From assembly GCA_963662715.1 (NCBI GenBank), contig OY759724.1, forward strand, positions 1,230,001 through 1,262,000: 32,000 bases of DNA, read 5' to 3'. This document shows positions 1 to 30,800 of the stretch, one piece after another. The DNA comes from Candidatus Omnitrophota bacterium (lineage in GTDB: Bacteria > Omnitrophota > Gorgyraeia > Zapsychrales > JANLHA01). The notes beneath the pieces are model-generated. The model did no database searches and was not told where the DNA came from. It was given only the letters and a program-made list of their open reading frames with translations. Numbering within the stretch: the stretch's first letter is position 1; each line of letters starts with the position of its first letter. The translations under genes and the position numbers were made by a program.

Positions 1-860
1 AGACGAAGTATTCATAACCGCGGACCTGGCTGAGCGTCTTGCCGTCGTTATAAGAATACTGCAGGACAGGCAAGACCTTATCGGCGTCTGTTCCGAACAC
101 TTCGGCGATGCTTGACTTGATATCCTCCGGATTGACAATCAGGCGGATCTCTGTTTCATCGGTATACGGCTCGGCCCAGCCTCTCGCCAGCAATTTCTCT
201 GAAATTTCTTCCCAGTCAAGGCCTTCTTCTCTCTCGACCTGCTGCTGTGTCAGGACCTGCGGATCGACGATCTTGACCGTCATCTGCTCACCTCTTCCGC
301 CGGTCAGGATGAACTTCCGGCCGTCATTGCCCAGGACATCTCTCCGGTAATAATCTTCCTCCTCGGTCGGAGAACGGAAAACCCGGACTTCTTTCAAGCC
401 GTTGCCGTCCTTGAACACGATCGTTCCCGGATTGATTCCGACTCTCAGATCAACTTCAATATCTTCCCCGTTATTGACCTTGAGCTTGTGTCCTTCCAGC
501 CACAGGACATTAATACCGAAATCTTTGTTGGCATAAAGCGTGGCGATATCGCGGCCGCGGCTGTCATTCGGAGTCAGGTAATGGTAAAGCTGCTTACCTG
601 TCTTGTCCGGATTATATCGCGGCCGGCCCAGCAGAGGCAGGAGCGTCTTGGCATCCGCACCGAACACTTCCGTCATCTCCGCTCTCACGTCATTCAGGTT
701 GACGATCAGGTGAATCTCCTCAAGGCCTGTGCGCTGAGCCCACCCGTTGTGGAGCAGTTTTTCGGAGACATCGCTCCAGTCAAGCTCGGCTCTCTCGATC
801 TGATTTTTGGTCAGATAACCGTTCTCAAGGATAACCGGTGTTTCCTCAACGATATCAAAC
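1..860 (-). repeat. Diverged tandem duplication of a ~188-aa module (period about 565 bp); the second copy runs off the window
   Basis: ELDWSDVSEKLLHNGWAQRTGLEEIHLIVNLNDVRAEMTEVFGADAKTLLPLL (about 795-640) matches GLDWEEISEKLLARGWAEPYTDETEIRLIVNPEDIKSSIAEVFGTDADKVLPVL (about 230-75). Confidence 0.7.
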
Positions 861-3800
861 AATGTCGCGCGGGAAATACCCATCTTGGCCAGATGCTGCC
901 AGAGATAAGCATTTTCAAGTCCGAAGCGGACGAGCGCTGTTCTGTTGTAGGATCTTTCCATTTCCTCATTAAACAACGCCTCTGCCTGTACCTTCAGGCC
1001 AAGCGCTTCAGCCTCTTCAATACTTAACGTTCTGAAGAATGTTTCTATCTGATATTCAACCCGCTCTTCCGCTTTCTCTCCCGCAGGCCCTTCAATTCTG
1101 GTAATCACGTCATCGAGCTTCACGGACCGTTTCACTTCACCCGTTCTCTCATCAAACTCAAGACCCACGATAATTTCCACCAGGTCTCTTTCAAGATTAT
1201 CCGGGTTCTGGGCCGGGACAGCTTCTTCCCTGACCGTAATGATCTTTCTCTTCACCGGATCATGCGGGATTCGGTATGTCGTGGTTCGGACATTGTCAAC
1301 CGTTGTCTCTGTCGAAACCTCAAAGATCAGATCCGACAAATCATCCACTTTACTGAACCGGGACATATCAAGGTTCAGCAAGGCTTCTCTGACCAAATCA
1401 TGCTGGATAAGAGCGGCGAAATCGATCTGCTGAATATCTCCGGCCCTGACACGGCCCCTATTTTCCGTATCCCAGACTTTGACCCAGCCTGAACCGTTCG
1501 CGCGGATCTCAACCTCGCTGGTCTCATGCTTGCCTGTCGGAGAATATTCTTTTCTTTCCTGGATTCTGAAGATGCTCTTTTCACCCGCCCGCTCACCAAG
1601 CTGTTCGTTTTTGTCAGAATCCTTAACCAAGGCGAAGAGCTGTTCCTGATTTTCAAAGTTCTCCGGAATCTGGATAGACCCGATCTGTTCTACCATAATC
1701 TTGCCCTTAACGATTTCTCTGCGTGTGACAAGAGCGCTTCCGCCGAGTTTCTCCTGGTCTCTCAGGTTAATGAATGTCTGGACGCGGTTCTCCCTGGTTC
1801 CGGTATAGCTGTAAACTCCCGTGACATTTTCGACTTCAACCTCTGTGCCGTCTGCCTGACGGACCGTTACGGTGAGACCTGTCTCTTTCTTGTAATCCGT
1901 GGAATAAAGCTCTTCGCCCGTTTCCGGATCAAAATAACGGATCTCTTCGCGCTCAGGATCTGTGCTCTGCAGCAGTTCGCCCTGGGCATTGTACACGTCA
2001 TATCTTTCCGTATCAGCCGCGAAATCTCTGACCGTGACATATCTGTTGCCTTCGGCGTCAACACGAGTTGTCAGAGATTCTCCGATGACCGGGCCTGTTA
2101 TGTCGACTGTTCCGTCAGCATTGACCTCATAGTCATCCAGCCAGTAAACCTTGCCGACGTTTTCGGAATCAAAGATTTCAATCTTCGACTCTTCCTGATC
2201 CACGGCCAGGTACAAGCGGGCGCCCCTGTTTCCTGGGAGGGTAACGTCAAGCACGCCGAACTTGTTCACGTATCTTGCGTTCCAGCGGGCCTTTTCATAA
2301 TTGGCGACATCCATCAATTCATCCATGGTCATGGACATGGCCGTGTTATCCTGATCCGTGAAGAAGAATTCCGTCTGCTGTCTCTCTGCCACCATGTCTT
2401 CGCCGGCAAAGCTGTAGTCCACAATACCTCTCGTCATGATGTCAGCATCTTTCATCGATTCGATTCTTTCGCTCAAACCGCTCAACCGCTCTTCGGAAGC
2501 CCCTCTCTGTGTTTCTGCGACACGCTTACGTTCTTCTAAGACTTTCTTCTGCAATTCAAGCGCCGTATCTCCTCGATCCTCTTCCGGCGAATTATACGGA
2601 TCAACAAAGAGGCTGATAATCCATTCAATGAAGTCCATGAAGCGGTCCAGCAGGGACGGATTCCTGTCTACGGCGGCTGCTTCTGCGGCAAGCCGTTCTT
2701 CCGTTTCTTTCGCGATCCGCTCTTCGATCTCGGCGATTTCGGCTTCCAGTTCGCGGATTCTTTCAGTATATTCCTCAATTTCTTTCTGGGCTTCTTCCGC
2801 CTGTGCCGTCAAGACCGGCAACATATCAATGACCACCGTTGACTTCAGAGCCCTGAGCTCTTCACTGATATATCCGTCTTCCTGTGAATAGTACTGGATG
2901 GTTTCTGATTCCAGACGGCCTTCATACTGACCGGTCAGATATTGCGGTGAATAATACGGATAACCTGCGCCTTCATACTCAAGGTGCTGATCTGTCGTTC
3001 TGTATCTGTCAGAGTGATCCAGCGTCATCAGTCTTTCATATCTCTCATTGCTGATGATCTGGTAATCGAACAAGGTGCCCTGCCGCAGGATTCTCACCCA
3101 GTTGCCGCTCAACCGGAACTGTTTGACTTCGTCTTTATAATCCTGGCTCAGTTCGATGACAATGCGTCGGTTGCCGGCGATATCGACAAACGTGTCGGCC
3201 TCGCGGGTATCCGGCGTTGCCAGACGTGACAGCATGCGCGGTCCGCCGAACCTGGACAAGGACCACTGCAAAGTCCACTTAGACCCGTATTTATCCATGA
3301 ACGATGTCAACCGCTCCTTGATTTCCCCGGCCGATAAGTCAACGGCTTTGTCTTCGCCGGCCTCACGGAGGAGTTCGCTCAAGAAGCTTATGGTCTCGGC
3401 ATTGAAGGACACCGTCTCGATATAGGAGGCGATGTTCTCGCGGTCAACCGCAAAGATATCTTTCAGCATCTCGACCTGGTCTTTTGCCGCGAAGAGCGTT
3501 CCGTGACCGTTGCCCATCGGAATACCGAATTTATCTGAAGAAATTTCTTCGAACAGATCTTTTCCGGAAACATCTTCGCTGCTCCTTGCCGCCCCGAACT
3601 CGATGATAGCGCCGTCATATTCTCCGCCGACAACCACAAGTTTGCGCAATTCTTTACCGTCTTCGTCATAACGTCCTAACGGAACGAAATCTATGGTTCC
3701 GTTAGCCAGGTTGGAATCCGTTAACTCAAGCAGCGTTGCCAACGTTAAGCTGAACGAACCTGTTCCTTTTAACCGTAATGCGCCAATGTTGCCTTCGATG

Positions 3801-6800
3801 ACGGCCCCGTCATAAATTCCGCCTCTCACGACCGTTCTGGTTACGCTTTCTCCGTTAACCGTAACGCTCTCGGTCTCAAGATAGCCGTTGCTCTTATCCC
3901 CATCCGCCAGGATTTCCAGGATGTCCTTCGTCAATCTCACCGGCTCGGCATTCTCCAGCATCAACATATGAGAACTGCTTAACAATTCGAGCTCTCTCCT
4001 CATCGTCATTAAGTTGTCGTCCACAAACACGGCCTGGTTGTATCCTTCCGGCATCTCATTTCTCGTGTCTTCGCTGAGATCTTCGAAGTCTTGCGGCAAT
4101 ATGACGCGGGCCTTGCCCTCTTTCAGGTCAACCTTATACTCTACTGTCTCGCCGGCTCCGTTGACGTAGGTCGCCTTCATGTAGAAGGTCACCTGCTCTG
4201 TCTCTTCATTGATCGTACGGAAAATACCCACAGCATTAAACTGTTCTCTATAGTCTTCATAAGTGTCTCTGATGGACAAGCCGTAAGAGAGATCTGCTTC
4301 TGGGATGGCAAACAGCGGCGTACCGTCCACTAATTTTGCAACGCCGCCGAGGGTTTCCGCCGTAAAGGCCTCGATACCGCGGTCGACCAGATCAGCGCTC
4401 GGGATCACCACATCGCCTTGCGGAGTAATGGAAAGGAGGATATTGCTGTACACCGACTTCCGGCTCTTGATCAATATCCCTTCGATTTCTTCGAATTGAT
4501 CCTCTTCCAGACCCGGGAACCATGCCTTGAATTCCGCATCCAGCTCTTCGAATTCCGGAGCCACCCGCATGGCTTCCGATACATAGCCTTTCTCGATGAG
4601 TCTCGGAATAATCGTTGCCGCATCAAGCCCGGCTCTTTCAAACGGCTGGGCTGTCAGGATGCCGCGGCCGGAGCTCAAGGTCATCTCACCCGTGCCGTTG
4701 AGGTAGCTGCCGAAGATCTCTTCATCATCCTCGTTGAATCCGGTGGCCACGCCCAGCAACCGTTTATTTTCTTTATCCTGATCTTCAATATCCTTGCCTT
4801 TGATGAGCCGTCTTAACTGCTCCCAGGCGACAGAAACAAAATCATATTTAAGGTTGGCAGACGGCTCACCGGTTGTGGAATATCGCGCTTCATATTCAAG
4901 TTCTTTCGTAATGTTTCTCCGGACACTGGCGGTCGCGCCGTAATCGCCGTACTGGTTCACGAAGGCTCCAAGGCTGATGCCCTTCTTGCTATACTGCACG
5001 CCATATGTTTCAAGATCATTTTCCCTCTGGTAGTAACCGGAGAACGGCCCGACGTTGCTTCTCAGGCTTAACCGGTCAGAATCGCCGAAGGCCTGATCCA
5101 CGGACATGCTGAAAGTCTTCCAGCTGTATGTGGCCCCTAAGAGCGCGTAATACCGAGTGTAATCCTCCCAGAGGTCATGGACGAAACCGTCGCTTTCTTC
5201 CCTGACCCCGGAAACGCGTACGCTGAACTGATGTGCGCTATTCTCATTTGTCAAAGCCTGCTCGATTGTGATCTTCTGGTAATTGACCTTGTCATCAACG
5301 CCGAACGTGAGATCTTGTTCATCGATCGCCGTTTGCCCGGTCAGCGGATCAACGATATAAACATCTCCCACCTCGGCTCTGTATCCATCTATGTACCCGG
5401 CTTCGGCGCTGATGGTCGTCTTGTTTATCTTGACTTCGACATACCCTTCGACACCTTTGGTTTCCATCTCTTCGCCTTCAACATTGAATTTCCAGAACGG
5501 AGCGAGACCGGCATAGACTTCCGCGTCGCCGACTTCCGTACGGTAAGCCAGGACGTCCACCAGGAGGATAGCGGATTCTTCCTGATCCTCACCGTCATCC
5601 GGGTCGGCGGCGTTCTGCAGGTAACGGTAAGATTCTGTATAACCGACGGAGAGGTTATGGCTAAACGTCGTATTGTCTGCGCCGGAGAGGTCAACGCTCG
5701 CCCGGACGTAGCGGTTTTCAGGAGCGTTTTCGTTCTGAGCCTGGAAGGTTCCGGCTTCCAAATCTACGCCCGGAACGGCATTATGAACCGAGAACTGCTG
5801 GAAGGTGACGGTGGCTTCACCGTTGAGGTTGACCACGTCAATCGTGCCGGACTGAATCACCGGCTGGCCGTTGACCATGGCCACGCGGCCGTAAAGTTTC
5901 TTGTTCACGAACACTTCATCGCCAATCTTGATCACCGGCGGCGGTGAACGCGTCATGCGGGCGATGAAGTTGTTGATGGCTCTAACATGTATTTCTTTGT
6001 CTTCAACGCTCTCTGAACTCTCTTCAACAGCTTTGATTAGGTACTGTCTCAAGGCGACCAATTGATCGTTATAGTCATTCGCCGCATCGGCAACGGCATT
6101 AACCTGCCTCTTCGCGTCGAGTTTAAGCTGTTCATAATCCTCCTCAGCCTCCGCCAGCTTGTTGGCTTCTCTGAGATTGGTGATCTCAGCCTGAATCATC
6201 GGCAGCAAGCCGGCCGTCATCATATCAAAGGCAGGATCGCGTCCTTCTCCTGTTCTCTCATCAACAGCTTTTAACGAAGCCAGGGCGTTCTCGGCTTCTC
6301 TGTCCAGGACATCGCCGATTTCCTCACCGGCGCCTTCCTTGAAGTACTGGCCATTAGCGATTAACGTGTTGATCTCTTCTACGATCCTCAACCGCTCCGT
6401 CAAGATAGCCTGGTTCGCTTCAAAGAAGGCGATCTTGCGCTCAATAATCTGATCCACCGTCTCACTGGACCGACCTTCCTGCAGGGCCAGATCTCTTTCG
6501 ACCTGTCTGTGAACACCGTAGTCCGGATTGTCATGGAAAGCTCTTTCCTGGGACAAGGTCGGGATAAACTCGTTCACGAATTGTGTGGTGGCTTCGCTGA
6601 GAGGCCCGGGTCCGCGGTCGCCGTTGTAAGCCACGACTGTTGACAAGTATGTCTCTGCTTCCGCCGTACGGCTGTATCGGCCCATGGTCTCTTTGGCCCG
6701 CGGCTGGTCATCATCAATATGCCAGTATGTCTTAACTTCCTCAATCGTCTTGACCTTTTCAGGATCTTGTCCTGCCTTGCGCTTAATCGGGATAATGAAG

Positions 6801-9800: not shown

Positions 9801-12800
9801 TCGATGTTATACCAGTAGCGGAGCGTGATGAATACCGTTTCTTTTCTGTCTTCCGGATCCTCGGCTCTCAAATTGTATCGATACCCGAAATCAAACCAGT
9901 CTGCCGGATAAACATTGTCCTCTATTTCAATTGTTTCTCCTTCTTTTCCTCTCTGAACAGCATAGATAATGCTCGGGTCTGTGTTCTTTTTAGCCTCTAA
10001 GGTATAATCGACTTCCCGTCGGCCGATGAACGGTACGGCCGGATATTTATGGCCTTCGTAAACTGAATCCTTATCAGGATCACCAAAGATGCTCCATACG
10101 CGGCCGAAAACTTCCTGGACAAAGTCGCCGATCAAGTGCGACAACGGGATGTCAGCTTTGCGGCCCGTGCGGATATCAGAGAACTTGGCTTCCGTGCCTT
10201 CATCGTTAAGCGGAATAATTTCCGGACTGGCCTTAAGCTCTGTTGTCAGATCCACGAACGGCCGCAAGACGTCCAGGGCTCCGCGGGTCTTATCCAGTCT
10301 CCAGAAAGGATGTTCTCTCTGAACCGCGATACCGCCCACGCCTTCCATGTTGAGGTAAACCTTCTCCATGCCTTCGTTATAAATTTCTGATGCGGCCTGA
10401 GCCCAAGCGACATAAGTGAAGGCTTGGGTAGCGATGGAAGCATCTGCAATGCTTTCCGCCCCGGTGGCCATATTGATAATCTGGGCATATTTATTGAGCG
10501 GTGTATCGAGCCCGATCATGAAATCAAGCGTGCCGTCTTCCCAAAGCTGGATGGAATGCCCGAAAAGCTTGTTGCCCGGATTCCAGTTGATACCGATTCC
10601 GGCGAAGAGGCTGGCCACCTTCTGCTGATCCTGCTGGGTCAATCCATTGGCGAAGTTTTGCGGCGTGGAGGTGAGAACCTGGTTATAAACGTCAAAGACC
10701 TGATATAAGGCTTCCTGCCGTCTGCGTTCATCGTTACGGGCATCGCCTTCTGTCTTCATCTGGATCTGTCTCAGCAGTTGTCTGGCCTTAAGGATATCTT
10801 CTTCTAATTCCTGAATACCTTCGCGGACATCTTCTAATCTGTCTTCCGGTGTCACTTCTTCCGGAGCGTATCTGCCGGCTTCAACGTTAAAGAGTCTTCT
10901 CTGTTCACGATCTATCTGCTGGCGGATCTTCTCTGTCTGGACTTTCGTCGTTTCGCCCCGTTCGCTTAAGACCTGAAGTTCATCTTCTTCCAGGTACGGA
11001 TTCATGAGCGACAAGGTCTCATCATTAATCTTCAGCTTAAAGACATATTCGGACTGGGCTGTTGTCTCGGTTCTAAACGTGCCCGCCAAGCCCAGGATCG
11101 TGCCGGCCTTGATCTCCTGGCCGACCAAGTTAACGTTGGTGCCTGTGAGATGACCGAAGATCTGCTGGACTTTGACTGTCTTGCCTGACCCTTCTTCCAC
11201 TGTTTCGGATTCAATGATAATTTCTTCACCGAACGGACCAGGCTCAACGCTAATCACCGTACCATCCATATAGCTCCGGACTGTGCTCTGTTCCGGCACA
11301 ATATGCTTCACAAACAGGCCTTGTGCTCTGATCTGATATTCAGTATTCACAATCAAGCCTTCCGTCGCCGCTGTTGTTTCCGGAGTTTCTGACGGCACAA
11401 CGCGGCCGGCAAGTTCTGAGGCTACAAATCTCGGAGTATCAATATTATCGAATTCATCAACCAAGGCGTAAATTGGGTTCTTGCTGGCAAACCACAGCAT
11501 CGTTTGCATACGGTCGACCTCGGCAACTTCAACCGCCTGTCTGAACAATCGGTAGACAATCTGGTTCAGCTCTTCTCTCGTCTTGAACTTGTCTTCCTGC
11601 GAAACAATGAAGACCATACCTTGTTTCGGTCCGACCGGCTCATCGGTAAAGGATTCCTCGTCCAAGATAGCGTTAATGTCTGTTATATCTGATTCAGTTA
11701 AGTTTGTTAACGGCTCAACGCCATCTGTTGTGATCTTCATCAAGCCGGCGCCGGTTCGGTAAATCAGGTACGGATCCTGCTGATCCGGAGTGGCGACGCC
11801 GGCGCCTTCTGTTCTGAACTGTGCGTGATCATCGATTCTCAGGATCGACATGACCGGCAAGGCTTCCTTCAGCTCAAAGTTCTGCTTAGCAATCTCCATT
11901 CTCTCTCTCAAGCTCAAGTTCGCAATAACGTCATGCTGTTCGACTTTGGCATCCGCCTCCGTTTCGCTCATAAACCAGATGCCTTCTTCTCTATAAGATT
12001 CGTCAATCGCTTTGAATTCACCGTCAAGTCTGCCTAACCGGGTCGGGACCGTTACCTCTTGTCCGCTGGTCAACCGTGTTCTTAACCGGCCAAGATTATC
12101 CACATCAAGATTTTCGAAATAGTTCATAATTGTTCTGACATACTTCGGTGTTTCCTGGTTCTTGGAGACATCACCCTTAATAACTCTCGGGTAATACCCG
12201 GCAGAATACCCCGGTCCGGCGTTGTATCCGGCCAAGGTGTACTGCAGAAGCTCTCTTAACGTAAGGTCTTTGTTCTCATACTTGCTGTTCAACATGGTAT
12301 CCATAACCTTGGCCACATAAGCGACGCCAACGGTGATATTCTTCTCGCGGTCGAACGCTTCACCATAGGACCATCTGCTGTCGATAAGGCCTCGGCTGTA
12401 AAGCGTGTTAACCATGGAAGACCAGGTGCCCGGCATGATCTGCATAATGCCTGTTGCGCCGGCCCGGCTGACAGCTCTCGGTTTGAAGCGGCTTTCCTGA
12501 TACATCATGGAAATAATGAATTTCTCCAATTCGTCCTTTGTAAATAACGGCTGGCCGTTGTTGTCTTCAAATTCTTCGGCGACCTGTTTAAAGATCGGGT
12601 AGTTCTTCCAGGCATCTTCGAGGATATCATCGAGTTCACGGATATCATGGCTAACCGGTGTTCTGGTCCGGCGGGCTTTTAAGTCTTCCGCATCCGTCAT
12701 TTCTTCGACATCGGATACCGTCATCTGACTTATAGCTTCCACGGTCAACGCTGTTCCTGTGAGGTCTTCATCTGCTTTGGCTTTAAGATATCCGCGGTAG

Positions 12801-15800
12801 AATGCTTCTGTCGGATCAATGCGATATTTATCTCTTGTCATTAAGGAAATCACTTTCTGGCGATCGGAAGACGGCGCAATACAGATTTCCATATGGACAT
12901 GGGCGACCGTTGTTTCGGCATTACCTGTTTTACCCGAGAGGGCAAAGACTTCACCCGCTTCAACTTTATCTCCTTCTTCGACCTCGTAATCATTCAAGTG
13001 GAAGAAGATAAAGAAGACTTTATCGCCGCCCGCCACTGTTTCATCGGATTCGATGAAGACGGTCTTTCCTGCTTTCTCAGACGCAGGATTGGTATGGATA
13101 ACCCGTCCGGAAACCGGCGACTTCAATTCCACGTCTTCCGGCAGTAATATATCGATTCCGCCGTGACCATTGACGGACCCGATTCTATAAGTTCCGAATC
13201 TTCCGTCTCCCTTGGAATCCCGTCCGCGGAGGACCCCGGCAGCGATCATTTCATCTTCAATAGCCGCGTTGTTCTCGAGTCTCTCTGTTGTTTCCGGAAC
13301 GTCCCTGCCTTCCACTCCCGGTTCTTCGGCCACTTTTCTTCTCAGGTCTTCTGTAATCTCACCCTCAGCAATCTTATTGCTGATGTGGACTAACGATTGC
13401 GGTGTCAACTCAAAGTCATCCCGGTCGTCACCGCTGAGCTGGAATGCTTCCTGGAAGAAGGCGATATCCTGTTCATCTAAGTCATCCCATTTGGCCTTAT
13501 CTTCAACAACGGCATCAATAAGAGCTTTGGACAGATATTGTTCTAAGGATTCTCTGTTAGCTTCCACCAGCAACAATGCCAGTTGACGATCGCGTTTTTC
13601 TTTCATATCGGCCAGGAGCTGAAGCTGCAACTGTTCTGCGCTGAGATTGATCAATTCTTTTTCTGAAACATTTTCATCCTTCAGTTTTTCTCTCGTGGCT
13701 GTTATGGCTTCTTCCGCTTGGGCCACGGCATCTTCATCCGAAAGCTCTGCGTCAAAAGTCTTGGCTCTGGCCGCTAATTCGTATACGGCAATATCTTTTT
13801 CTCCACCCATAATGTTCTGATAGACCCAGTTGCTGGCGCGTATTCCAGCTGCATCTTCGACACTATCCAGACCATGCTGAGCCCAGTTAATCGCACCATA
13901 CTGACCTTCAAGAGCTTCGGCCAAATTGTAGATCGGTTTACCCACAACGCCTAAGATCGGGTGTTCAGCCAAGGCCTTGCTGCCGCCCATAACCGCGTCA
14001 ATTTCAATTCCGATCAAGGACATATGCCACAAGCTGCTTAAGAACTTGCCGCCTTCTAAGAGCCATTGAGCGAAATAGGATGTCTTGGCTTTTTCAGTTA
14101 AATCTTTATTAGCTTCCTGCATCAGGTTAACGAAGAAATCAAAATCAAATTTTCTCGTATTATTCATCAGGAAGACCGGGAGATATCCGAGATAGAAGAC
14201 CGTCGCCAGCGGCACACCTAACCAGAAGCCGGTTAAGGCCTTGCCTAATGCTAAGGCCCGGTTCATGATGCTTCGTCCCTGCGGCGCGGCAACCTTGGTT
14301 TCGGCCTCTAACATTTTCTTCAGGGCCGGCCGGCCTTCAGCCGTTACAGTTCCGTCGGCGATCAATTCCTTGATAAGAATTTCTGTCTTCTCATTAGCTT
14401 TCTTGCCCTCTGCCGGATGCATCAAGCCGTACAAGTAGCGGGCAGATGTCGAGGCGATATTAACACCTTGTTTCTTCCTGGCCCGGATATACATAAGATG
14501 TTTGGCTGTATCAAGAACACTCATGAATCTCAAGCCAAGCACCGTAATCATTAATTTGACAAGTTCGGGCACGGATAACGGCAAGCCTAAAGCGTTGGAT
14601 GCGACAACATCCATACCGAATATCGAGATAACGAGAGCGTGGCCGATAACGCCGGAAATGAGAAGCATGGTGCCTCGGCTGACCGCAAAGCGTACGATAC
14701 CAAACGGAACCGGGAAGGCGGAGACCAGCCAAGCCAATAACTTCTGTCGACCATATGTCCAGGTCTTGCGGATACTGCCTATTTTTTCAGTCGCTAATTC
14801 TTCTCTGAGGATCTCGGTCTCTGCTTCAACACTCTTCCTCTTCTGCGCATCCATGGTTCCGTCTTTGTATTCCTTGACGAATTCAGCAAAATCAATAGAT
14901 TTCATGATGTATTCCCAGAAGAAGTTCCAGACCACTTTGACCAGGTAAGGTGCCAGGTATCCGAAGATGGCGCCTTTAGCCACGGAAATCCAGAAAGCTG
15001 TTGTTGCTACTGCTGTTAAAGTAAGCGGCATGAACAGGGCGCCGACAACCGCCCCTGCTGCCAGTGAAACGAGGGCAATCTTTGTCTTATTCTTGTCGAA
15101 GATCCTTAACATGCTGCCGATTAATGAGGACGGCTTCGGAGCATATGTCTGGGAATGTATGATTCTCAACGCCTGGCGTTCGAGCAAGCTGACGCCGCCC
15201 AGGACACCGTAAGTTAAGGAGGCATCTTTTCCAGCCTTAAGATTACTGACGTCCTTCACAAACAGGGCCAAACCGGCCATAATTAGCGATGATACGCCGA
15301 AAATGGCTATAAGCGACCCAGCCATCGTTGGAACGAGGGCAATACCGGCAGCGGCTATTCCAGCGTGAATTAATAATTTGAAGACATTGTAGACATCGCG
15401 CTTTTGCAGCGGTCTGGTGAACAAATCTCTTAAGTTACTCCAAATACCAGGTTTGACTGGACTGGAGACATTGCCGGTCTCATGACTTGAAATCTCTGTT
15501 TCTTCTCCCTTAACCGGACTGGAGACCGAGGTGTCCTCTACAGAAGCCCGTACGGGCGAACTGGCCACAGGAAGCTCGGCCGCCGTGATATTGGCTTGCG
15601 GGCTTAAGTATGTAATTCCGCGGTAAATACCTTGCGGATACCCTGTCGGTAACATCTGATCCGTGAATCTGATGACCATAGATCCACGTTTTACGGCCTG
15701 CTGCCCAGCTGTCGCTATACTGCCTGTTCCGATCTTGCTGATCATGTGTTCAGCAAAGAATCTAGTATTGTTTTCTTCTGCGTCGCCGCTTCCCTCTCCG

Positions 15801-18800
15801 CCGGCCGAAATTTCGAAGACGATCTTTGTTCTCATGCTTTCCAGCAGTCTGCCTAAGTCCACTATCGGATTCAGGAGAGCGCTAAGAAGTCTTTCTGTCT
15901 GTCTCTTATTGTCTTGATATGTCTTTGTTAAGAGATAATAGTAGAACCCTGTCTGCTCTTTATAGGTTTCTGAGATACGGCTTAATTGCTTAATAAACTC
16001 ATCTTGTTTCTCAAAGCCTCTATTGACACCGGAATCAAAGACGGCCTTCAAGCCATACAAGGCCGTTGTGCTTTCCTCTCCGGCATTTCTGTCGATGGAC
16101 GTGATCAGGTCAGCCAATTGTTCTCTGCTTGTGCTTCTGTACAACTTCGAAGCAAACATTCTTCTGAAGAGGTAATCTCTTGCTCCCCTTGCTGCTCTTC
16201 TGTAATTTTCAGCCGTGCTGAGCGCTGTCCAGGCCGCCGTCAGGTGCTCAACCGTCTTCCTGTAATCTCTGGCCATGAACTCTTTGACCTTGCCAGGTAC
16301 ACTTCTGAGCGCTGTCCAGGCCGCCGTCAGGTGCTCAACCGTCTTCCTGTAATCTCTGGCCATGAACTCTTTGACCTTGCCAGGTACACTTCTGAGCGCT
16401 GTCCAGGCCGCCGTCAGGTGCTCAACCGTCTTCCTGTAATCTCTGGCCATGAACTCTTTGACCTTGCCAGGTACGCTTCTGAGCGCTGTCCAGGCTGCCG
16501 TCAGGTGCTCAACCGTCTTCCTGTAATCTCTGGCCATGAACTCTTTGACCTTGCCAGGTACACTTCTGAGCGCTGTCCAGGCTGCCGTCAGGTGCTCAAC
16601 CGTCTTCCTGTAATCTCTGGCCATGAACTCTTTGACCTTGCCAGGTACACTTCTGAGCGCTGTCCAGGCTGCCGTCAGGTGCTCAACTGTCTTCTTGTAA
16701 TCTCTGGCCATGAACTCTTTGACCTTGCCAGGTACGCTTCTGAGCGCTGTCCAGGCTGCCGTCAGGTGCTCAACCGTCTTCCTGTAATCTCTGGCCATGA
16801 ACTCTTTGACCTTGCCAGGTACGCTTCTGAGCGCTGTCCAGGCCGCCGTCAGGTGCTCAACCGTCTTCCTGTAATCTCTGGCCATGAACTCTTTGACCTT
16901 GCCAGGTACGCTTCTGAGCGCTGTCCAGGCTGCCGTCAGGTGCTCAACCGTCTTCCTGTAATCTCTGGCCATGAACTCTTTGACCTTGCCAGGTACACTT
17001 CTGAGCGCTGTCCAGGCTGCCGTCAGGTGCTCAACCGTCTTCCTGTAATCTCTGGCCATGAACTCTTTGACCTTGCCAGGTACACTTCTGAGCGCTGTCC
17101 AGGTCGCCGTCAGGTGCTCAACCGTCTTCCTGTAATCTCTGGCCATGAACTCTTTGACCTTGCCAGGTACACTTCTGAGCGCTGTCCAGGCTGCCGTCAG
17201 GTGCTCAACCGTCTTCCTGTAATCTCTGGCCATGAACTCTTTGACCTTGCCAGGTACACTTCTGAGCGCTGTCCAGGCTGCCGTCAGGTGCTCAACCGTC
17301 TTCCTGTAATCTCTGGCCATGAACTCTTTGACCTTGCCAGGTACACTTCTGAGCGCTGTCCAGGCTGCCGTCAGGTGCTCAACCGTCTTCCTGTAATCTC
17401 TGGCCATGAACTCTTTGACCTTGCCAGGTACGCTTCTGAGCGCTGTCCAGGCCGCCGTCAGGTGCTCAACCGTCTTCCTGTAATCTCTGGCCATGAACTC
17501 TTTGACCTTGCCAGGTACGCTTCTGAGCGCTGTCCAGGCCGCCGTCAGGTGCTCAACCGTCTTCCTGTAATCTCTGGCCATGAACTCTTTGACCTTGCCA
17601 GGTACACTTCTGAGCGCTGTCCAGGCTGCCGTCAGGTGCTCAACCGTCTTCCTGTAATCTCTGGCCATGAACTCTTTGACCTTGCCAGGTACGCTTCTGA
17701 GCGCTGTCCAGGCTGCCGTCAGGTGCTCAACCGTCTTCCTGTAATCTCTGGCCATGAACTCTTTGACCTTGCCAAGTACGCTTCTGAGCGCTGTCCAGGC
17801 TGCCGTCAGGTGCTCAACCGTCTTCCTGTAATCTCTGGCCATGAACTCTTTGACCTTGCCAGGTACGTTTCTGAGCGCTGTCCAGGCCGCCGTCAGGTGC
17901 TCAACCGTCTTCCTGTAATCTCTGGCCATGAACTCTTTGACCTTGCCAGGTACGCTTCTGAGCGCTGTCCAGGCCGCCGTCAGGTGTTCAACCGTCTTCC
18001 TGTAATCTCTGGCCATGAACTCTTTGACCTTGCCAGCTTTAATGCTTACAGCCTCAACAGTGCTGTCAACCATCTCTTTCACGCCACCTCGTTTGATGAA
18101 GTTATAAACCCTTGCGCCCAACATCAAGCCAGGAATAATGAGAAGGACTGGCCAAACGGCACCAACCGTTGTCGCAACAACTGGTACGGTCTTTGCCACA
18201 ACCGGCAAGCCGACTGTCAGACCTTTACCTAATCCATAGGAAACAATGAGGTAGAGTATCGCAGATTTGATGGTTCCTGTTGCTGCAGCTCTGAACATAT
18301 TTCTATAGGTTACAGCACTAAAGACCGAACGGAAGAACCTCGCCGTACTCGCTCCGAATGTCTTTACGGCTTCGCCCATCTGTCTTGCTTTCTTTGCCGC
18401 TCTCTGATATCTCTTGTAGGACTTGGAAAGCAGGATATCTTCAATAACTTCTTTATCTTTACCCGCTAATAATTGGGCTAATTCATCGTTATTATCGAGT
18501 TTCAAGCGTCTCAATAATTTTTCTGTTTCACCGAGATTTCTTTCTATCGGTGAAGAGGAGGCAGAAGCTGTAACGGATTCGCGGCCAGAGGCGGAAAGAA
18601 CAACCTTCTCTCCCACCTCTGGTGTTTGAGATAATGCATATCTGCCTCCCTTAGTTGAGATTTCTGCGTGATCCTGTTCTGTAAATCGGAACTGTTCTAT
18701 TCTGGATCGCACTGGAGAGGATGCCTCGAACATGGTTGTACTCGGCTGCGCTGGTAAGCTCAACCCAAGTTGCTTTAAGGCCGTTACGGCGGTAAATCCG

Positions 18801-21800
18801 GCCTTTATGGTTGAAGATGAGGTATAAATGAGTTCTTCCTGTCTTCTCTCTGGCAGTGCCGAAGATACAGTCGCAACGCTGGATCTCAACGAGATGTTTG
18901 AATTCGATGTCTGGTAATTGATTGGTTTGCGTGTTGATAAGGACCATAATGTACCTCCTGTGGTTAATTGAATTGCTTGTGTATTTGTTCTATCAAATGA
19001 AGAACCCTGACCGGTAATATCTGCACGAATGGCAGCCATACCAGACAGGGTTCGTTTTGTATGGGATATAAGTGAAGCAACAGATCCTATATTTGCAGCT
19101 CTTGGTGCAACTTCATATCTGAGCTTCAATAAGGTAAGATTTGTCCTTATAGAGACATATGTGTCATATATGCCTTTAGTAATGACACAAATAGCTTTGG
19201 CGAGATTTTCTCGCTTAAAGACTTGAGTTAAGAGTTTTACTCTCTTGAGGGACTTTGATACAACTAACGATACGAGTGGCGTGCTAACTGGAATAGCAGC
19301 AGCCAATAGTTTCTCAACACCTAATGAACCTTCCCAAGCCATTCTAGACAGCCCAGAAATAGTTCTTGTAGTGTTTCTCTTTTCGCCTGTACCAGTTGCC
19401 TCGTTCTGATCCGCAGCTCTATCTGTTACAACCGCTACATCCTGAGTAAACTCTGCCTTGTCAGAACCTCTACCCGTTGTTACAGCAATAACCGCCTGAG
19501 CGATTCTCAGATCAAATTCATCCGCTAAAGCTTTATCCTCAGCAGCGCTTACCTTTATACCTACAGGCAACACTCTGAGAACTCTTCTTAACACATCTTC
19601 AGAACCACTTATCACCTCGATCGCTTTCGCAATCCAAGCTCTCAGCAATTCTGCGATACTGCTAAGCACACCTTCAGCAGATTCTTCGTACGCTTCTACA
19701 GTACTTACAGCCTGACCAGTCACCTGACCAAACCGTATACCTAAGGCTTTATTCTCAGTCACATCCATTACTGGCTGTACTCTGAGAATTCCACTGGAAA
19801 CAGCTTTTACTGATCCAGGCACAACTTCAGTTCCTGTTATCAGTACACCATCACCAGCAACCCTAGCTTCTGCTCGTACTGCATTCGCATAGCTAATCAC
19901 TTGACCGATTACTCGACCAAGCTTCACAAAGGCTTTTGCCTCAGCAAGACTTACTGTTTCTTCAACAGCTTGTTCACTGAGAACCTTATCAGATACAATA
20001 TTCGAACTGCTTACACCTTCGATTACTTGCGCAACCTTAGACTTCAGCAATCCTTCTACTATACCTTCACTTCTTACAGAGCGGTTTACTACAGTTACAA
20101 CGCGGTTAGCCTGAGCGATTCTCAGATCAAGTTCATCCGCTAAGGCTCTATCCTCAGCAGCGCTTACCTTTATACCTACAGGCAACACCCTGAGAACTCT
20201 TCTTAACACATCTTCAGAACCACTTATCACCTCGATCGCTTTCGCAATCCAGGCTCTCAGCAATTCTGCGATACTGCTAAGCACACCTTCAGCAGATTCT
20301 TCGTACGCTTCTACAGTACTTACAGCCTGACCAGTCACCTGACCAAACCGTATACCTAAGGCTTTATTCTCAGTCACATCCATTACTGGCTGTACTCTGA
20401 GAATTCCACTGGAAACAGCTTTTACTGATCCAGGCACAACTTCAGTTCCTGTTATCAGTACACCATCACCAGCAACCCTAGCTTCTGCTCGTACTGCATT
20501 CGCATAGCTAATCACTTGACCGATTACTCGACCAAGCTTCACAAAGGCTTTTGCCTCAGCAAGACTTACTGTTTCTTCAACAGCTTGTTCACTGAGAACC
20601 TTATCAGATACAATATTCGAACTGCTTACACCTTCGATTACTTGCGCAACCTTAGACTTCAGCAATCCTTCTACTATACCTTCACTTCTTACAGAGCGGT
20701 TTACTACAGTTACAACGCGGTTAGCCTGAGCGATTCTCAGATCAAGTTCATCCGCTAAAGCTTTATCCTCAGCAGCGCTTACCTTTATACCTACAGGCAA
20801 CACCCTGAGAACTCTTCTTAACACATCTTCAGAACCACTTATCACCTCGATCGCTTTCGCAATCCAGGCTCTCAGCAATTCTGCGATACTGCTAAGCACA
20901 CCTTCAGCAGATTCTTCGTACGCTTCTACAGTACTTACAGCCTGACCAATTTCACTACCTAAGACCGTATCCCTGACAGCTTCACTTATACCACTTGAAG
21001 CCACTTCAGGAACATCTTCTAATATAGTCAAGGCATTTACAGCTCTTTCAGTTGTTTTCACAACATCAGAACCTTCATAAACCTCAACCACACTAGCATC
21101 TTCGACAGTTACTGCACCTACTGTCTTAGCATACACGGCTTGAGCATCATCTCGTTCAAGCTTTTGTTCAAAGGCATTATCCTCAGCAGCACCTACTTCT
21201 ATATAAGCAGATACCTTGAGAACATGACCATACAGAATCTTTGCACCGCTTATTGCTTCAACATCGCGCAACTGCTTCACAGCAACTAACGATACCTGAT
21301 CTCTTCCAGCCATACCATTGATACTTCCAACATACGCAACATCAGCAGCCTTGCTTACAGCAGACATATAGTCTACATCAAAGGCTTTACCCTCAGCACA
21401 TAAGCCACTACTGGCCAACACACTCAGGATACGATTTGTGAATACGTTATTCAGCACATTCTCATTACTGAGGACGGCTACAACATATCCATCAAACCTT
21501 ACACCCCTGACAAAGCTTACTTCAGTAACAATGTCAGCATGATCAATTACTTGACCAAGTATACCAAAGGCATCTAACTCAGCCTCACCGGATACATCAT
21601 CAGCGAATACTCTGAGTTTTCCACTGTACAGAGAATCAGCACCGCTTATTGCTTCAGCCACACTTACAGCATCCACATTAAGCCATACACTGAATCCGCT
21701 AGTACTACCTTTAACAGAACGTGATACAACTCTTCCAACACCAACAACGGAAACAGTTTGATCGCTTACACGACCATACTCATTGCTGATTGCACTAGAC

Positions 21801-24800
21801 ACACCAAATACATCACTTGATTGTGTACTAGCCTTCTCATCATTAGACACAGCATTCGATTCGCTTCCAAGCGTTGATACACCTTCATCATCACTTGTAG
21901 TCGTATCTTCAACAACGCTAACGATAAGTACAGAGCGATTAGTCCATTTGCTGCCGTACGTTCTAAGGATCGTTACAACACGATTCGTATACTGCTTCAA
22001 CCAAGCACTAACTTTCATCAGGGCCGATCTAACAGCCACGAATATTCCTTCAGCTACCTTGAATGGCTCTTCAAGGTTGTAGCTGGCTGTAGGCACAGCT
22101 TCCGGTAATGTACTTCTTCTAGACCCGTTACCAGACTCAGATCTAGCAATTCCCTGAATCAATCCGGACAATAGAGCCATAACTGCCTTGGCTATGCCTC
22201 CGAAGAGTATAGACCAATCAATTGCAGCTATACCACTAATACCAGATGTTCTCAAAGAACCGGCATTGGCGTATGTTCCACCTACACCTCTCGTGTTAAC
22301 GCCTCCACGATTGGCGCTCACCCATCGAGTCTCTAACTCATCCTCGGCTTTTTGTGTTGCTGCCGAGAGAACTGTACTACTCGTCTCAACATTGACGATT
22401 GCACTGCTTACACCGTTCGCGTTATCGTCACCGCGACTGGCGTTTCTCACCCAATTAGTTTTTAACTCTGGTGTCACCGCTGTCGAAGCAGCCGTGATCA
22501 CACGAGCCGATTCAGCGATTGTACTGCTCACACCAGCAGCTACGCTAGTTCTGGTGGCGTGTTTCTCCCTTACTTCTGTCTTCGCCTCTGATGTGGCCGA
22601 TGCGACAACCACACGAGCCGATTCAGCGATTGTACTGCTCACACCAGCAGCTACGCTAGTTCTGGTGGCGTGTTTCTCCCTTACTTCTGTCTTCGCCTCT
22701 GATGTGGCCGATGCGACAACCACACGAGCCGATTCAGCGATTGTACTGCTCACACCAGCAGCTACGCTAGTTCTGGTGGCGTGTTTCTCCCTTACTTCTG
22801 TCTTCGCCTCTGATGTGGCCGATGCGACAACCACACGAGCCGATTCAGCGATTGTACTGCTCACACCAGCAGCTACGCTAGTTCTGGTGGCGTGTTTCTC
22901 CCTTACTTCTGTCTTCGCCTCTGATGTGGCCGATGCGACAACCACACGAGCCGATTCAGCGATTGTACTGCTCACACCAGCAGCTACGCTAGTTCTGGTG
23001 GCGTGTTTCTCCCTTACTTCTGTCTTCGCCTCTGATGTGGCCGATGCGACAACCACACGAGCCGATTCAGCGATTGTACTGCTCACACCAGCAGCTACGC
23101 TAGTTCTGGTGGCGTGTTTCTCCCTTACTTCTGTCTTCGCCTCTGATGTGGCCGATGCGACAACCACACGAGCCGATTCAGCGATTGTACTGCTCACACC
23201 AGCAGCTACGCTAGTTCTGGTGGCGTGTTTCTCCCTTACTTCTGTCTTCGCCTCTGATGTGGCCGATGCGACAACCACACGAGCCGATTCAGCGATTGTA
23301 CTGCTCACACCAGCAGCTACGCTAGTTCTGGTGGCGTGTTTCTCCCTTACTTCTGTCTTCGCCTCTGATGTGGCCGATGCGACAACCACACGAGCCGATT
23401 CAGCGATTGTACTGCTCACACCAGCAGTTACGCTAGTTCTGGTGGCGTGTTTCTCCCTTACTTCTGTCTTCGTCTCTGCTGTGGCTGATGCGACAACCAC
23501 ACGAGTCGATTCAACGATTGCACTGCTTACACCGTTCGCGTTATCGTCACCGCGATTGGCGTTTCTCACCCAATTAGTTTTTAACTCTGGTGTTACTGCT
23601 GTCGAAGCAGCCGTATTCACACCAACCTTTGCTATCGTTACAACATATTCAAGTCCTGTCCTCTCTTGAGCAGCTTTTCCTGCCTGAATGCCTGAGGAGG
23701 CATTGGCAGCGGCCCACGGCGTGGGACTAGAGCCAGAACTTCTAAAATTCTTTTTGGCTCCTTTGTCTATACTTAAATCTATGTGTTGCCGTTCTGCTTG
23801 CGGATCAACAATTGGTGCGCTGGCAACAGAAGCTTTATTAGCATTCATATTTCTGGCATAGGCGATAACCAAAGCTGTCTTGGCTTTTGCCGTTCCTGTA
23901 GCTCCGGCAGTTCCTCCGCCAGGAGCCGGCTCTTCAACAGGAGCAGGAGAACTAAACGGTGAACTTGTAATAGGAACACCTTTGGTTCCGCTATCCTTTC
24001 GGCCTTCTATAGGATTATGTTGATTGGACGGAAGAGACAACTTCCCAAGACTGAACGCTGCTATAGGCAATGCAGGGATAAATATTGGAGAAGACGGCAC
24101 AGCTTGCACAGGTAATTGCGGCGGTGCAACAGGCTCTGTAACAACAACTGGCGGTGCTAGCGGCTGTTCTTCCGGAGGCGCACGAGAAGCTTCCGTTAAT
24201 ACGGTTTCTTCCGGTTTAGAAAGGTCTTCCTGTTTAGCCACTTGCCCTGATACCTTATCCTGAATTGTTATCCCTGAAGCATCGGCAGGTTTCTCTGCTT
24301 GGGCCTTGTCCACTTTTGCCACTTCAATAACTTCTTCCTGGGCTCCTTCTTTAATTTCACTGCCGAACAAGAAGGCAAAGGCATCTTTAAGTTGTCCCCA
24401 CAAGCTCTCTGAGGACTCTTCGCCAACGAGAGCAACCAAATCTTCCTTAGTTTTAATTTTACGCAACTGATTAAGCGATTTTTCTAATATTGGATAGCCG
24501 TCTTCTGAAATTGTACGCTGTCCTTCCTGCTGTGCGGCATTGATAACAGCGTCCATCTCTTTGGCAAGCAACTGTCTTTCTGCCTGATCCTGAATTGACT
24601 GAGACATGACGGCCTTTATAACATCAAATGCTTTTCTGTTATCGACTGACAACTTCTCAATTTGCTGAATAACTGGTGAAGCCTGCGCAAGGCGCGGAAC
24701 CTCTGTAACCGTACCTGGTTGGTCTTTGGCTGTGGTAGAAGCTTTTGCAATTTCAACATATTTGGTTTGACTCTTTAACTTCTGACCATACGGAGTTCTT

Positions 24801-27800: not shown

Positions 27801-30800
27801 TGGGTGGTAATGCGTTCCACTTCCAGGGCTTCCAGCGTCGGGACATAGACATAAACCGGTCTTGAAGTGTCAGTGACTGTTTTACGCGCCGAGGCTAACA
27901 ATTCAGGAAGAGTCTTATCTTCTTCAAAAAGAACAACCGATTTATTGGCATCATGAGCTAATCTCACTTTTTCTTCTAACGAAGCAGCCTTCTGGTGAAT
28001 TGTACCGCTTGTAATATCCCAGAAAGATAAATTCTCCGATTCTATTTCTCTCTCCAAATCTTTCTCAGTCGGCTCATAATAACCGTCTATCGGGGATGAA
28101 CTTGCCTGTGCCAAATCTGTAGCCGCAGAAGTTGAAACTTCTCTATTCGCCATAGGGCCGCCGCTAAAGGCAGGCAAAAGAATCGGTGCAGACAAAACAG
28201 GTAACGGCGCCGTAAGAGGAGCACTCACCGGTAATTCCACGGCCTGTTCCGGAGCCTTCGGAGACGGAAGGACATCCTCTCCTTCCGCGGAAGCGGCCTT
28301 TTTCATCTGTCCGCCGTGATCAACGACAGTGGCGGAAACCATCAACAATCCACCTTTTTTCTCCGGTTTTGGCATAGAAGCAAATTGAATCTCCGGTTTC
28401 GTAAGATTCAAATTACGCACAGGAGAAGGTGTCGGACGAATGCTGCTGCCGTCAATGGCATTAGAAGCAAGTTGTGTTAATCCCTGCTTTATTGTTTCCC
28501 CGGCAGACTTCTTCAACATTTCAGCTCTTATAGCTCCTGTCTTCTCTGCTGATTCAACGACAGGAGAGGACAATGTTGGGAATGTCGGGGCCGTGATCGT
28601 CGGAGCCACAGGGGCTGTTACAGACGGAGCTGCGACCATTTGCACCGGCTTTTCTGCAGACAGGGCTTGTGTCTGTGTTTCTTTAACAAGCGATGAAGAG
28701 ACAGACACCATGCCACCCGGCTGAGTCTGTGCAGCTTCAGGCTGCTTCAAAACAGATGAAGAGACAGTCATCATGCCGCCGGCTTGCGTTTCTGTCATGG
28801 TCATAGGCGACGGTTTAATCACCGACGAAGATACCTGCATCATGCCGCCCCGTTTTTCCGGTTTTGTCACCTGCTGACTTGTTTTAAGCGAAATGTCTCT
28901 GTTCCGGCTTGTTGTGTCGACCTTGGCAAGTTCCACCGGTTTGCTGCCCGGTAAAGCCGTTTCAAATGCTGGCAAGACCGCCGGGCTTGATATAGACGGA
29001 ACAGACGGAGCAACGGTTACAGGAGAAGCGGCAACAGCTGTTACCGGCTTCATTTCCGGTTTCTCAACAACAGATGAAGAAACTGTCATCATGCCGCCGG
29101 CTTGCGTTTCTGTCATAGTCATAGGCGACGGCTGAATAACCGACGAAGACACCTGCATCATGCCGCCGGCTTGCGTTTCTGTCATGGTCATAGGCGACGG
29201 CTGAATAACCGATGAAGACACCTGCATCATGCCGCCCGGCTGTGCTTGGGCCATAGCCACCGGCGACGGCTGAATAACCGACGAAGACACCTGCAGCATG
29301 CCACCACGTTTAGCCGGTTTCTTTGTGAATTGTATTTCTTCTCTAGATAAAGATCTCTGGCGTGAAGTTGTGTCAACTTTTGCCAGTTCCACAGTCTTTC
29401 TTCCTGGCTGAATATCTTTGCTTAACGGAGATGACGTCATAAGAGGCATCGGCATCGTCGTCGGAAGAGTAACAGCCGGGGCTTGCGGCGTCGCCACAAC
29501 AGGAGAAGCAGAAACCTCTACGGTTCTAGGTGCTTCAAGGGACGGAGCCTTAATGACAGCCGTCGAATCCTTCTTCACAACCGTTGAAGAAACGGTCATC
29601 AATCCGCCGGCCTGAGTTTCTGTCTTGGCCATAGGTGACGGCTTGATAACAGCAGACGATACCTGCATCATGCCGCCCGGCTGAGCTTGGGCCATAGCCA
29701 CCGGCGACGGCTTAATCACTGATGAAGACACCTGCATCATACCGCCTCGTCTGGAAATATTCTTAGGAGATAGAGCATAGCCCCGTTCCTGAGCTGTCAG
29801 CGGCATGGACCACCGTAACGGGCTGCTGGAACTGCTGCTGCCCTTCGGTTGAGACAAGGAGGCCAGCAAAGCTTCCTTAGCTTGTTTAGGAACATAGGCT
29901 TTTAACGGCGCGTTCATCTTCTGCGCCCAAATAATTCTATTATTGCCGTCGTACGCCGTTCCGTCACCGTTTAACGCCACGGGATCCTGCACCATAACGG
30001 CCATGATCGCCCTTTCTGTGCGATAAGGACTAAGGTTTGACATCTTCGGAGAAAGGTTCTGCACCTGCTCTGGAGTCAAGGTGACCAATTCGTCATATTT
30101 TGCCGGCGGCTGCACATCGAAAATAACTTCTCCCTGTGCCTGCGTCCTGATTTCAGAAGCAATCTGCGGATTCTCCTTCATTATTTCGGAAATCTTGGAA
30201 ACCAAGACAGCTTCTTGCGGCTGGGAAGCGGCGTTCATGGACCCCGTCAAAGCCCTGAGATCGGAATAATTGATATCTTTCGCATCTTTAGCAACAACAG
30301 AGGAAACTCTCTCCGGCAGTTCAATCGGAGAAGAAGAAGGCTTTTCTGTTAAGTCATAGGATTTCGCCATGAATTCACTGTTCGGCATTTCAACAAACTT
30401 CTTTAAAGCTTTTTCATAATCATGATCCAGGTCCCCCCGGTTTTCCACAACCATAACACCGAGGACCTTCTCCTCTTCAAGCACTCTGAAGACAACCCTT
30501 TGATTCCCCAGCCTGAGTTTATTAAGACCTTTTAAGGCCTGGTTGTATTCAAATTTAGACGGTTCCGGGCTCTCGAGGAAAGTTGTAAAGGAATCTGATA
30601 ATCTGCTTTGGACTTGATTGAGCTTGGCCTTCCTGACGTCCTTCAACACGCGGACAGTATAGCCTTTAACATTTACCGGCTGAGCGGCTGCGGCCACTTC
30701 GGCCGATGAAGAACCTTCAGTTCCTTCCCGTTTAGCGGCAAATTCTTTCTTTGACAGGCCCCAGCGCTGCAGATTATTCATAACCCGATGACGTGTCGAA

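Follow-up and report, generated by a model that had tools for sequence, protein, structure and literature searches.

A near-identical 29-residue repeat array next to a conserved membrane module in a giant reading frame of Candidatus Omnitrophota

The 32,000-nucleotide (nt) stretch of contig OY759724.1 analysed here (Candidatus Omnitrophota bacterium, assembly GCA_963662715.1, positions 1,230,001 to 1,262,000; hereafter the window) is crossed from edge to edge by a single stop-free open reading frame (ORF) on the minus strand, in which residue n begins at nt 31999-3(n-1). The whole 32-kb window is an internal piece of one giant gene, and the region of interest lies at about amino acids (aa) 4570-5946. 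From the N- to the C-terminal side, it encodes a hydrophobic pair (block 1), a tandem array of 29-aa units, a unique stretch and a hydrophobic cluster (block 2), followed by a peptidase M23 domain and an SLT lytic transglycosylase domain (Table 1). An earlier reading of the same DNA from its letters alone (the sequence-only reading) had proposed this order of parts. The order was borne out, with the two hydrophobic blocks, placed there at nt 18290-18090 and 15380-14160, agreeing with ours within ~20 nt, and the unique stretch, put there at about 270 aa, measured 273 aa.

Table 1. Coordinates and properties of features along the giant reading frame (TRF, Tandem Repeats Finder; AF2, AlphaFold2)
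Feature	aa	nt	Strand	Remarks and basis
Single stop-free frame		31999->2	minus	10,666 aa, open at both ends; six-frame scan
N-part charge	1-4570			net -0.5/100 aa
Hydrophobic block 1, putative two-helix membrane hairpin	4576-4632	18104..18274	minus	K/R-rich flanks on both sides; hydropathy
Loop charge	4636-5536			net +7.3/100 aa; array alone +62
Array, 21 x 29 aa (87 nt), unit PGKVKEFMARDYRKTVEHLTAAWTALRSV	4655-5263	16211..18037	minus	TRF and protein register
Unique 273 aa	5264-5536	15392..16210	minus	shared domain, then S/T/P-rich linker with three SSPV motifs
Domain common to relatives P0004 and P0032	5277-5395	15815-16171	minus	phmmer E = 1e-17 (P0004), 2e-13 (P0032)
All-helical membrane module, ~600 aa	5537-6140	13580..15391	minus	phmmer relatives, alignments, AF2
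Hydrophobic cluster (block 2), first two-thirds of module	5537-5945	14165-15391	minus	8-9 hydrophobic helices
Module motif PYLxxVxWNFFW		14915-14950	minus	alignment
Module motif FPxxxGxxxFxxxR	5762-5775	14675-14716	minus	alignment; invariant R5775
Module motif WHMxxIGxEI	5990-6003	13991-14032	minus	alignment; invariant E5999
Module motif LEGxxGAIxW(G)		13883-13912	minus	alignment
Peptidase M23 (PF01551)	6278-6373	12881..13168	minus	Pfam 70.1 bits, cut-off 28.7
SLT/GH23 lytic transglycosylase (PF01464)	6492-6597	12209..12526	minus	Pfam 59.1 bits, cut-off 21.3
C-part charge	4,606 aa after module			net -8.0/100 aa; -370 total

M23 and SLT were the only Pfam matches above threshold in the 10,666 aa, and both domains combine a profile score above the gathering score with the catalytic motifs of the family. 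The M23 domain carries HxxxD (HGGID, aa 6279), the catalytic His (FFHL, 6332) and HxH (HVHME, 6367) and matched PDB 5kqb at E = 1e-10. The SLT domain carries E-S (YQESRF, aa 6500), GIMQIMP (6517) and AGYNAGPG (6590) and matched PDB 9vi7 and 1qsa. The hydrolase pair expected after the hydrophobic cluster is therefore present with its motifs intact. PHROG and NCBIfam scans of the giant ORF gave no domain above threshold beyond these two. Exact-DNA and protein-pattern scans of phage and plasmid records, viral contigs and genome contigs found no close relative of the window, and the corresponding scan of JGI metagenome contigs gave one weak SLT match only (L001). The ORF contains three Cys in all its 10,666 residues.

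The hydrolases follow a membrane module whose family we defined by ~600-aa homology together with the motifs PYLxxVxWNFF, FPxxxGxxxFxxxR, (W/Y)(H/Y)MxxIxxEI and LEGxxGAIxWG. The copy in the window aligned with its closest relative, P0001, at E = 5e-60 and with P0002 at 7e-60, and has the invariant residues P5763, F5771, R5775 and E5999, among others. When aa 5270-6250 were compared by phmmer with 1.84 billion protein cluster representatives, 38 relatives were found, 26 of them below 1e-10 (best 5e-60). Ten relatives were looked up: eight are partial proteins from Candidatus Omnitrophota metagenome-assembled genomes (MAGs), one is P0004 (ENA), and one, from a hydrothermal-vent metagenome, bears the label 'phage tail tape measure protein'. 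The nine among them that bear a source name are all pieces of Candidatus Omnitrophota giants. The window most likely belongs to a giant gene of the Omnitrophota type. A pattern scan across GTDB species, each represented by one genome, located the module at ten loci, nine in Omnitrophota MAGs and one in a genome labelled Planctomycetia, and at all ten a single stop-free ORF filled the entire fetched stretch (up to 21 kb). Between the module and ~aa 8157, M23 and SLT included, P0001 and the window are collinear.

AF2 modelling of the module from an 18-sequence alignment gave an all-helical fold (pLDDT 79, pTM 0.77). A Foldseek search of this model against the PDB returned noise only (best E = 0.5, TM-score <=0.14), and the module had no Pfam, PHROG or NCBIfam match; weak hits to NCBIfam SmsB and PHROG RelE lay far below cut-off and were rejected. 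R5775 and E5999 are invariant inside otherwise hydrophobic helices, and such charged invariants within the membrane suggest a catalytic or gating role for the module rather than that of a passive anchor. L003 and P0002 each carry two module copies in one polypeptide, with annotations of CPBP-type intramembrane proteases and a thioredoxin-like CPGC stretch nearby. The duplication within single polypeptides points to the module as a reusable cassette within giant proteins.

The hydrophobic character of the two blocks was judged by cluster statistics (57-aa and 410-aa windows compared with shuffled sequences) in place of single-window thresholds. The number of 19-aa windows with Kyte-Doolittle (KD) hydropathy >=1.6 was 14, compared with 15 in shuffles, which is chance level in a protein of ~10.7 kaa. 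Block 2 contains three of the top four 57-aa windows in the ORF and block 1 the other (1.34-1.54; shuffle maxima 1.08 +/- 0.15), and the 410-aa mean hydropathy of block 2 was 0.53, whereas shuffles gave 0.10 +/- 0.07 and never exceeded 0.40. Both measures exceed the shuffles, indicating more hydrophobic clustering than chance would give. The best helices of block 2 are clearly membrane-grade (Hessa-scale sums -1.9 to +0.9). The sequence-only reading had counted about 6-9 hydrophobic helices in this cluster; we found 8-9, within what proved to be a conserved module.

The array itself was recovered by TRF as an 87-nt period in 20.9 copies at 98% identity (nt 16218-18036), and at the protein level its 21 units are spaced by exactly 29 aa. 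The unit is predicted to form an amphipathic helix with a hydrophobic moment of 0.43 per residue, in agreement with the earlier description of 21 copies of a 29-aa amphipathic unit, and each contributes a net charge of +3 (+62 overall). In a single-sequence AF2 model of ten units, each unit folded into a helix of 24-26 residues and a turn of 3-5 residues (pLDDT 66, pTM 0.58). Foldseek matched this model to designed helical-repeat proteins and natural alpha-solenoid proteins at E = 1e-5 to 4e-3. The likeness to PDB 8g9j (TM-score 0.65 normalised to the target), 9mg8, 8tl7, HEAT/ARM and 14-3-3 proteins consists of stacked ~25-residue helices joined by short turns. The unit here is a single 29-aa helix, whereas alpha-solenoid proteins use a helix pair, and there is no sequence-family match between them. 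The units are accordingly predicted, at the level of this model, to stack as an alpha-solenoid-like rod of cationic amphipathic helices.

The array unit matched no known family. HAAS (PF22564) was considered and rejected: its 39 bits were summed over the 21 copies with no single stretch passing, and three units scored 16 bits against a cut-off of 27, amid many equally weak unrelated matches, as expected of noise inflated by repetition. On the plus strand, an ORF of 748 aa with a TTG start (nt 15986-18232) overlaps the array in antisense and was set aside as an artefact; a plus-strand frame read across the repeats (nt 16218-16478) is interrupted by a stop in each unit.

In the relative P0001, a hairpin is followed by a basic helical stretch of ~190 aa and then by the module, without repeats. 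In P0004, the hydrophobic pair ends ~3 aa before the domain that it shares with the window, with no array between them. Ten homologous loci (137 kb) contained almost no nucleotide tandems, compared with 9.6% of the window in TRF arrays. Because the array is absent from P0004 and its copies are nearly identical, it looks like a recent, lineage-specific, in-frame tandem amplification inside a pre-existing loop. It would have arisen by slippage or unequal recombination between the hairpin and the conserved small domain. We infer that the array is at most a length-variable basic spacer or scaffold and not a conserved functional domain. The sequence-only reading had added that copy number would set the length of the loop, which holds trivially, the array being 609 of about 900 aa.

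Topology was inferred from hydrophobicity, AF2 secondary structure, loop charges and domain content. Alignment of 29 modules showed positive charge in the long loops (L2, ~10 K+R, net +4.8; L7, ~13.5 K+R, net +5.4) and next to none in the short loops L1, L3 and L6; the stretch that follows the module has a net charge of -3.7. These charges and the AF2 helices fit either 7 or 9 module spans, and either count places the N-terminus inside and the C-terminus outside. In 15 of 18 relatives, a short stretch of 28-112 aa separates the preceding hydrophobic segment from the first transmembrane (TM) helix of the module, and 13 of these 15 stretches are net positive. Domains upstream of the module in relatives include GNAT, ACT and RelA_SpoT (L007), HATPase_c (P0007) and M24 (L010), whereas peptidoglycan-directed domains occur downstream only: M23, SLT or GH24 lysozyme lies 50-420 aa after the module in six relatives (P0001, P0014, P0021, P0023, P0025 and P0030), L008 has an M23-like stretch there and L010 a LysM domain. 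In the window, the ORF is neutral or basic in net charge ahead of the module, and an abrupt switch at the module takes it to -8/100 aa over the following 4,606 aa.

The loop charges and domain distribution in relatives and the charge switch across the module make a cytoplasmic loop the most likely setting of the array. The module is thus probably N-in/C-out, which puts the array and the unique domain on the cytoplasmic side and M23/SLT outside. The earlier reading had left open whether the loop was cytoplasmic or extracytoplasmic; these topological indications favour the former.

The motif SSP[V/I/L], which recurs in the linker before the module, occurs at 13 sites in the giant ORF against 0.5 expected from shuffles (aa 195, 556, 725, 856, 1144, 1301, 1543, 2636, 4427, 4482, 5480, 5493 and 5512). 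Each of the 13 sits on the N-terminal side of the module, three within 35 aa directly before it, and the 5,100 aa after it contain none. Relative L007 (= P0010) has 17 copies; these, too, lie exclusively upstream of the module, in many cases where domains meet. As a signal restricted to one membrane side, the motif may serve processing or modification or mark linkers.

Taken together, we read the region as part of the interior of a giant protein threaded through the membrane, a kind known from Candidatus Omnitrophota, and give this explanation as a whole (module topology, cytoplasmic array and recent amplification) a probability of roughly 55%. In this explanation, the module, with its N-terminus in the cytoplasm, its C-terminus facing outward and 7 or 9 spans, would anchor a long, very acidic C-terminal arm and place it outside the cytoplasmic membrane. 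The arm would begin with an M23 endopeptidase and an SLT lytic transglycosylase positioned to cut peptidoglycan, either of the cell's own wall, letting the giant protein through, or of the wall of a host or prey cell. The array would lie in a cytoplasmic loop of ~900 aa, closed by the module on one side and by a probable two-helix hairpin on the other.

Several observations weigh against this explanation and are given in this and the next two paragraphs, with the alternatives on which they bear. Block 1 is an uncertain, marginal TM candidate. Its Hessa-scale sums are marginal (+2.4 to +3.1; the best block 2 helices reach -1.9 to +0.9), it is rich in P, G and T, and single hydrophobic windows of its level arise by chance in a protein this long. 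No homologue was demonstrated for it, and its alignment with the P0004 hairpin was not significant (z = 1.9), leaving a correspondence that is positional only. Block 1 might instead be buried or interfacial; the array would then be tethered at one end only, as the end of a long soluble N-side region held solely via the module. We consider this somewhat unlikely. Block 1 reaches a KD maximum of 2.04 and holds the second most hydrophobic 57-aa window of the whole ORF, at 1.46 compared with 0.74 for the next best outside both blocks and ~2.5 standard deviations above the shuffle maxima. K/R residues flank it on both sides, and in relatives a hydrophobic segment usually sits shortly before the module. 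The claim that the array is a long loop held between two membrane anchors is plausible; the cluster is strong and conserved, and the claim is weaker at block 1.

The cytoplasmic placement of the array meets difficulties of its own. Subtilases are more often secreted, and L010 carries an S8 subtilase on the N-side of its module. The span count is ambiguous at aa 5742-5826, with eight hydrophobic helices and one amphipathic helix in the module, and for such giants the published predictions by DeepTMHMM and TMHMM contradict each other (bioRxiv 10.1101/2023.11.21.568195). With an even number of spans, the module would anchor an extracytoplasmic array; this would form a stalk, in the periplasm or on the surface, that shares its side of the membrane with M23/SLT and whose copy number sets its reach. 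HEAT helical-repeat regions in Omnitrophota giants were reported as predicted to be extracellular (10.1101/2023.11.21.568195). This arrangement is unlikely in view of the net charge of the array, the K/R-rich flanks of block 1, the family-wide positive loops that fit an N-in module, the pre-module stretch, which in 13 of 18 relatives is short with a positive net charge, the acetyl-CoA- and ATP-dependent domains upstream of the module in relatives, and the sharp charge switch across it.

As to the array, the other four AF2 models of ten units reached pLDDT values of only 36-48, so that confidence in the predicted rod is modest. Short-read MAGs tend to lose repeat arrays, and the absence of arrays from homologous loci is therefore in part an assembly bias. 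Conversely, copies 98% identical over 1.8 kb are beyond short-read resolution, and the array or its copy number could be an assembly artefact of a shorter repeat. We regard this as very unlikely. The copies differ from one another: synonymous variants at unit positions 63 (A/G) and 84 (C/T) are spread among them as a mosaic, four copies have private replacements, and the first and last copies are degenerate, grading into unique sequence. In addition, the repeat length is divisible by three, and no stop interrupts the frame in this array or in two others. The differences amount to ~4 independent synonymous and 4 non-synonymous events, too few to judge selection.

The remaining alternative is a phage tape-measure or ejection-like device, in which the repeats serve as a ruler, the helices insert into a target membrane and M23/SLT breach the wall. 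Repeats, hydrophobic segments and M23/SLT likewise occur together in phage tape-measure proteins; T5 pb2 and the Geobacillus virus E3 tape-measure protein share with the window the order of helical repeats, hydrophobic segments and M23 and/or SLT, along with the idea that repeat number sets length. Furthermore, phrog_4070 'tail length tape measure protein' matched the M23 part, the E3 protein matched the SLT part, and P0014 is annotated 'Phage tail tape measure protein'. It is nevertheless extremely improbable, since all phage matches (PHROG, tblastn) are confined to the hydrolase domains, the window had no DNA match to phage or plasmid records, a search of IMG/VR viral contigs did not find the module, relatives lie on chromosomal-size Omnitrophota contigs (815 kb and 107 kb), the ORF exceeds 10,666 aa with no phage gene or any other gene in the window, and the loop charges of the module fit a stably inserted polytopic protein. 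Membership among phage tail tape-measure proteins was rejected accordingly, with no tape-measure match outside the lytic domains and no phage tail-gene context; scale and the chromosomal giant-gene setting differ as well.

The 29-aa array is one of several internal repeats in the window. A second in-frame array (nt 22499-23533, aa 2821-3173) consists of 9.3 copies of 111 nt (37 aa) at 99% identity and is rich in S, T, A and V. About 90 aa downstream of it lies a lone hydrophobic window (aa 3259-3281, KD 1.91) that could be a single membrane span. Longer units are more diverged: those of ~205 aa at ~19450-21070 (aa 3643-4183) share 66-93% identity, and P/S/T-rich units of ~150 aa at ~28250-29760 (aa 746-1250) share 36-80%. 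A 69-nt array of 3.1 copies (89% identity) spans nt 29087-29302, and a 46%-identical pair stands at the C-terminal window edge (nt 2-760, aa 10413-10666). The giant gene has grown repeatedly by tandem duplications of different ages, and the 29-aa array shows that this growth continued through recent in-frame amplification.

Giant Omnitrophota proteins lack annotation for the most part, and published predictors disagree on their membrane topology. Having cytoplasm-type domains on its N-terminal side and wall hydrolases on its C-terminal side, the module could serve to orient other giant proteins, and it offers a defined, foldable target for studying how giants cross membranes. We can imagine, as a decidedly speculative extension, that the module is a new self-contained membrane gate and anchor that passes a wall-degrading arm of thousands of residues out of Omnitrophota cells, with the cationic 29-aa solenoid as a copy-number-variable cytoplasmic element on its inner face. 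If so, the solenoid could bind the inner leaflet, nucleic acid or the acidic arm before export, and slippage in the array would tune the device between cells.

Membrane-anchored bifunctional wall hydrolases, of the VirB1-like and CwlT/TcpG types, are found in secretion and conjugation systems. Homology between them and the window was found in the catalytic domains only. These enzymes are a few hundred residues long with one anchor helix, whereas the hydrolases described here follow a 600-aa polytopic module in a protein of >10 kaa. What they have in common is a membrane anchor followed by glycan- and peptide-cutting domains, and local opening of the wall for a large machine.

The closest comparison is with the giants of Omnitrophota themselves. 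Giant genes with many TM regions and occasional SLT domains were described in this phylum in 2023 (West-Roberts et al., bioRxiv 10.1101/2023.11.21.568195), and in a 2026 catalogue of 916 long proteins 94% had TM helices or a signal peptide (bioRxiv 10.64898/2026.06.07.730766). Their TM blocks occur every ~370-500 residues with long soluble stretches between them (10.64898/2026.06.07.730766; 10.1101/2023.11.21.568195). Because TM blocks recur along the described giants, a long soluble stretch between two of them is ordinary, and the suggestion in the sequence-only reading that this topology is unusual does not hold; with long loops the rule in the class, the point is of modest interest. Repeats are likewise the rule in the catalogue, in which strict nucleotide tandems were found in 17% of long genes and never made up >10% of the coding sequence (10.64898/2026.06.07.730766); near-identical nucleotide tandems, which are less usual in the class than long loops, account for 9.6% of the window. 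Term searches of the two papers found no mention of M23 and, as far as such searches show, neither describes the module, its recurrent pairing with wall hydrolases, or near-identical arrays of this size.

Full-length examples of the 'Archaeovorin' type among these giants mostly carry a divergent SecA_DEAD helicase domain. SecA_DEAD (E <= 0.01), HEAT and dockerin had no Pfam match in the 10,666 aa of the window, beyond both ends of which the ORF continues. With two significant hydrophobic blocks holding ~10 helices in this piece, the protein has the numerous TM regions within one giant ORF that are expected of the type. It resembles the 'Archaeovorin'-type proteins further in its ORF of >10 kaa, in TM blocks alternating with long soluble stretches, in its mostly unannotated sequence and internal repeats, and in the SLT domain, which is reported there as less common.

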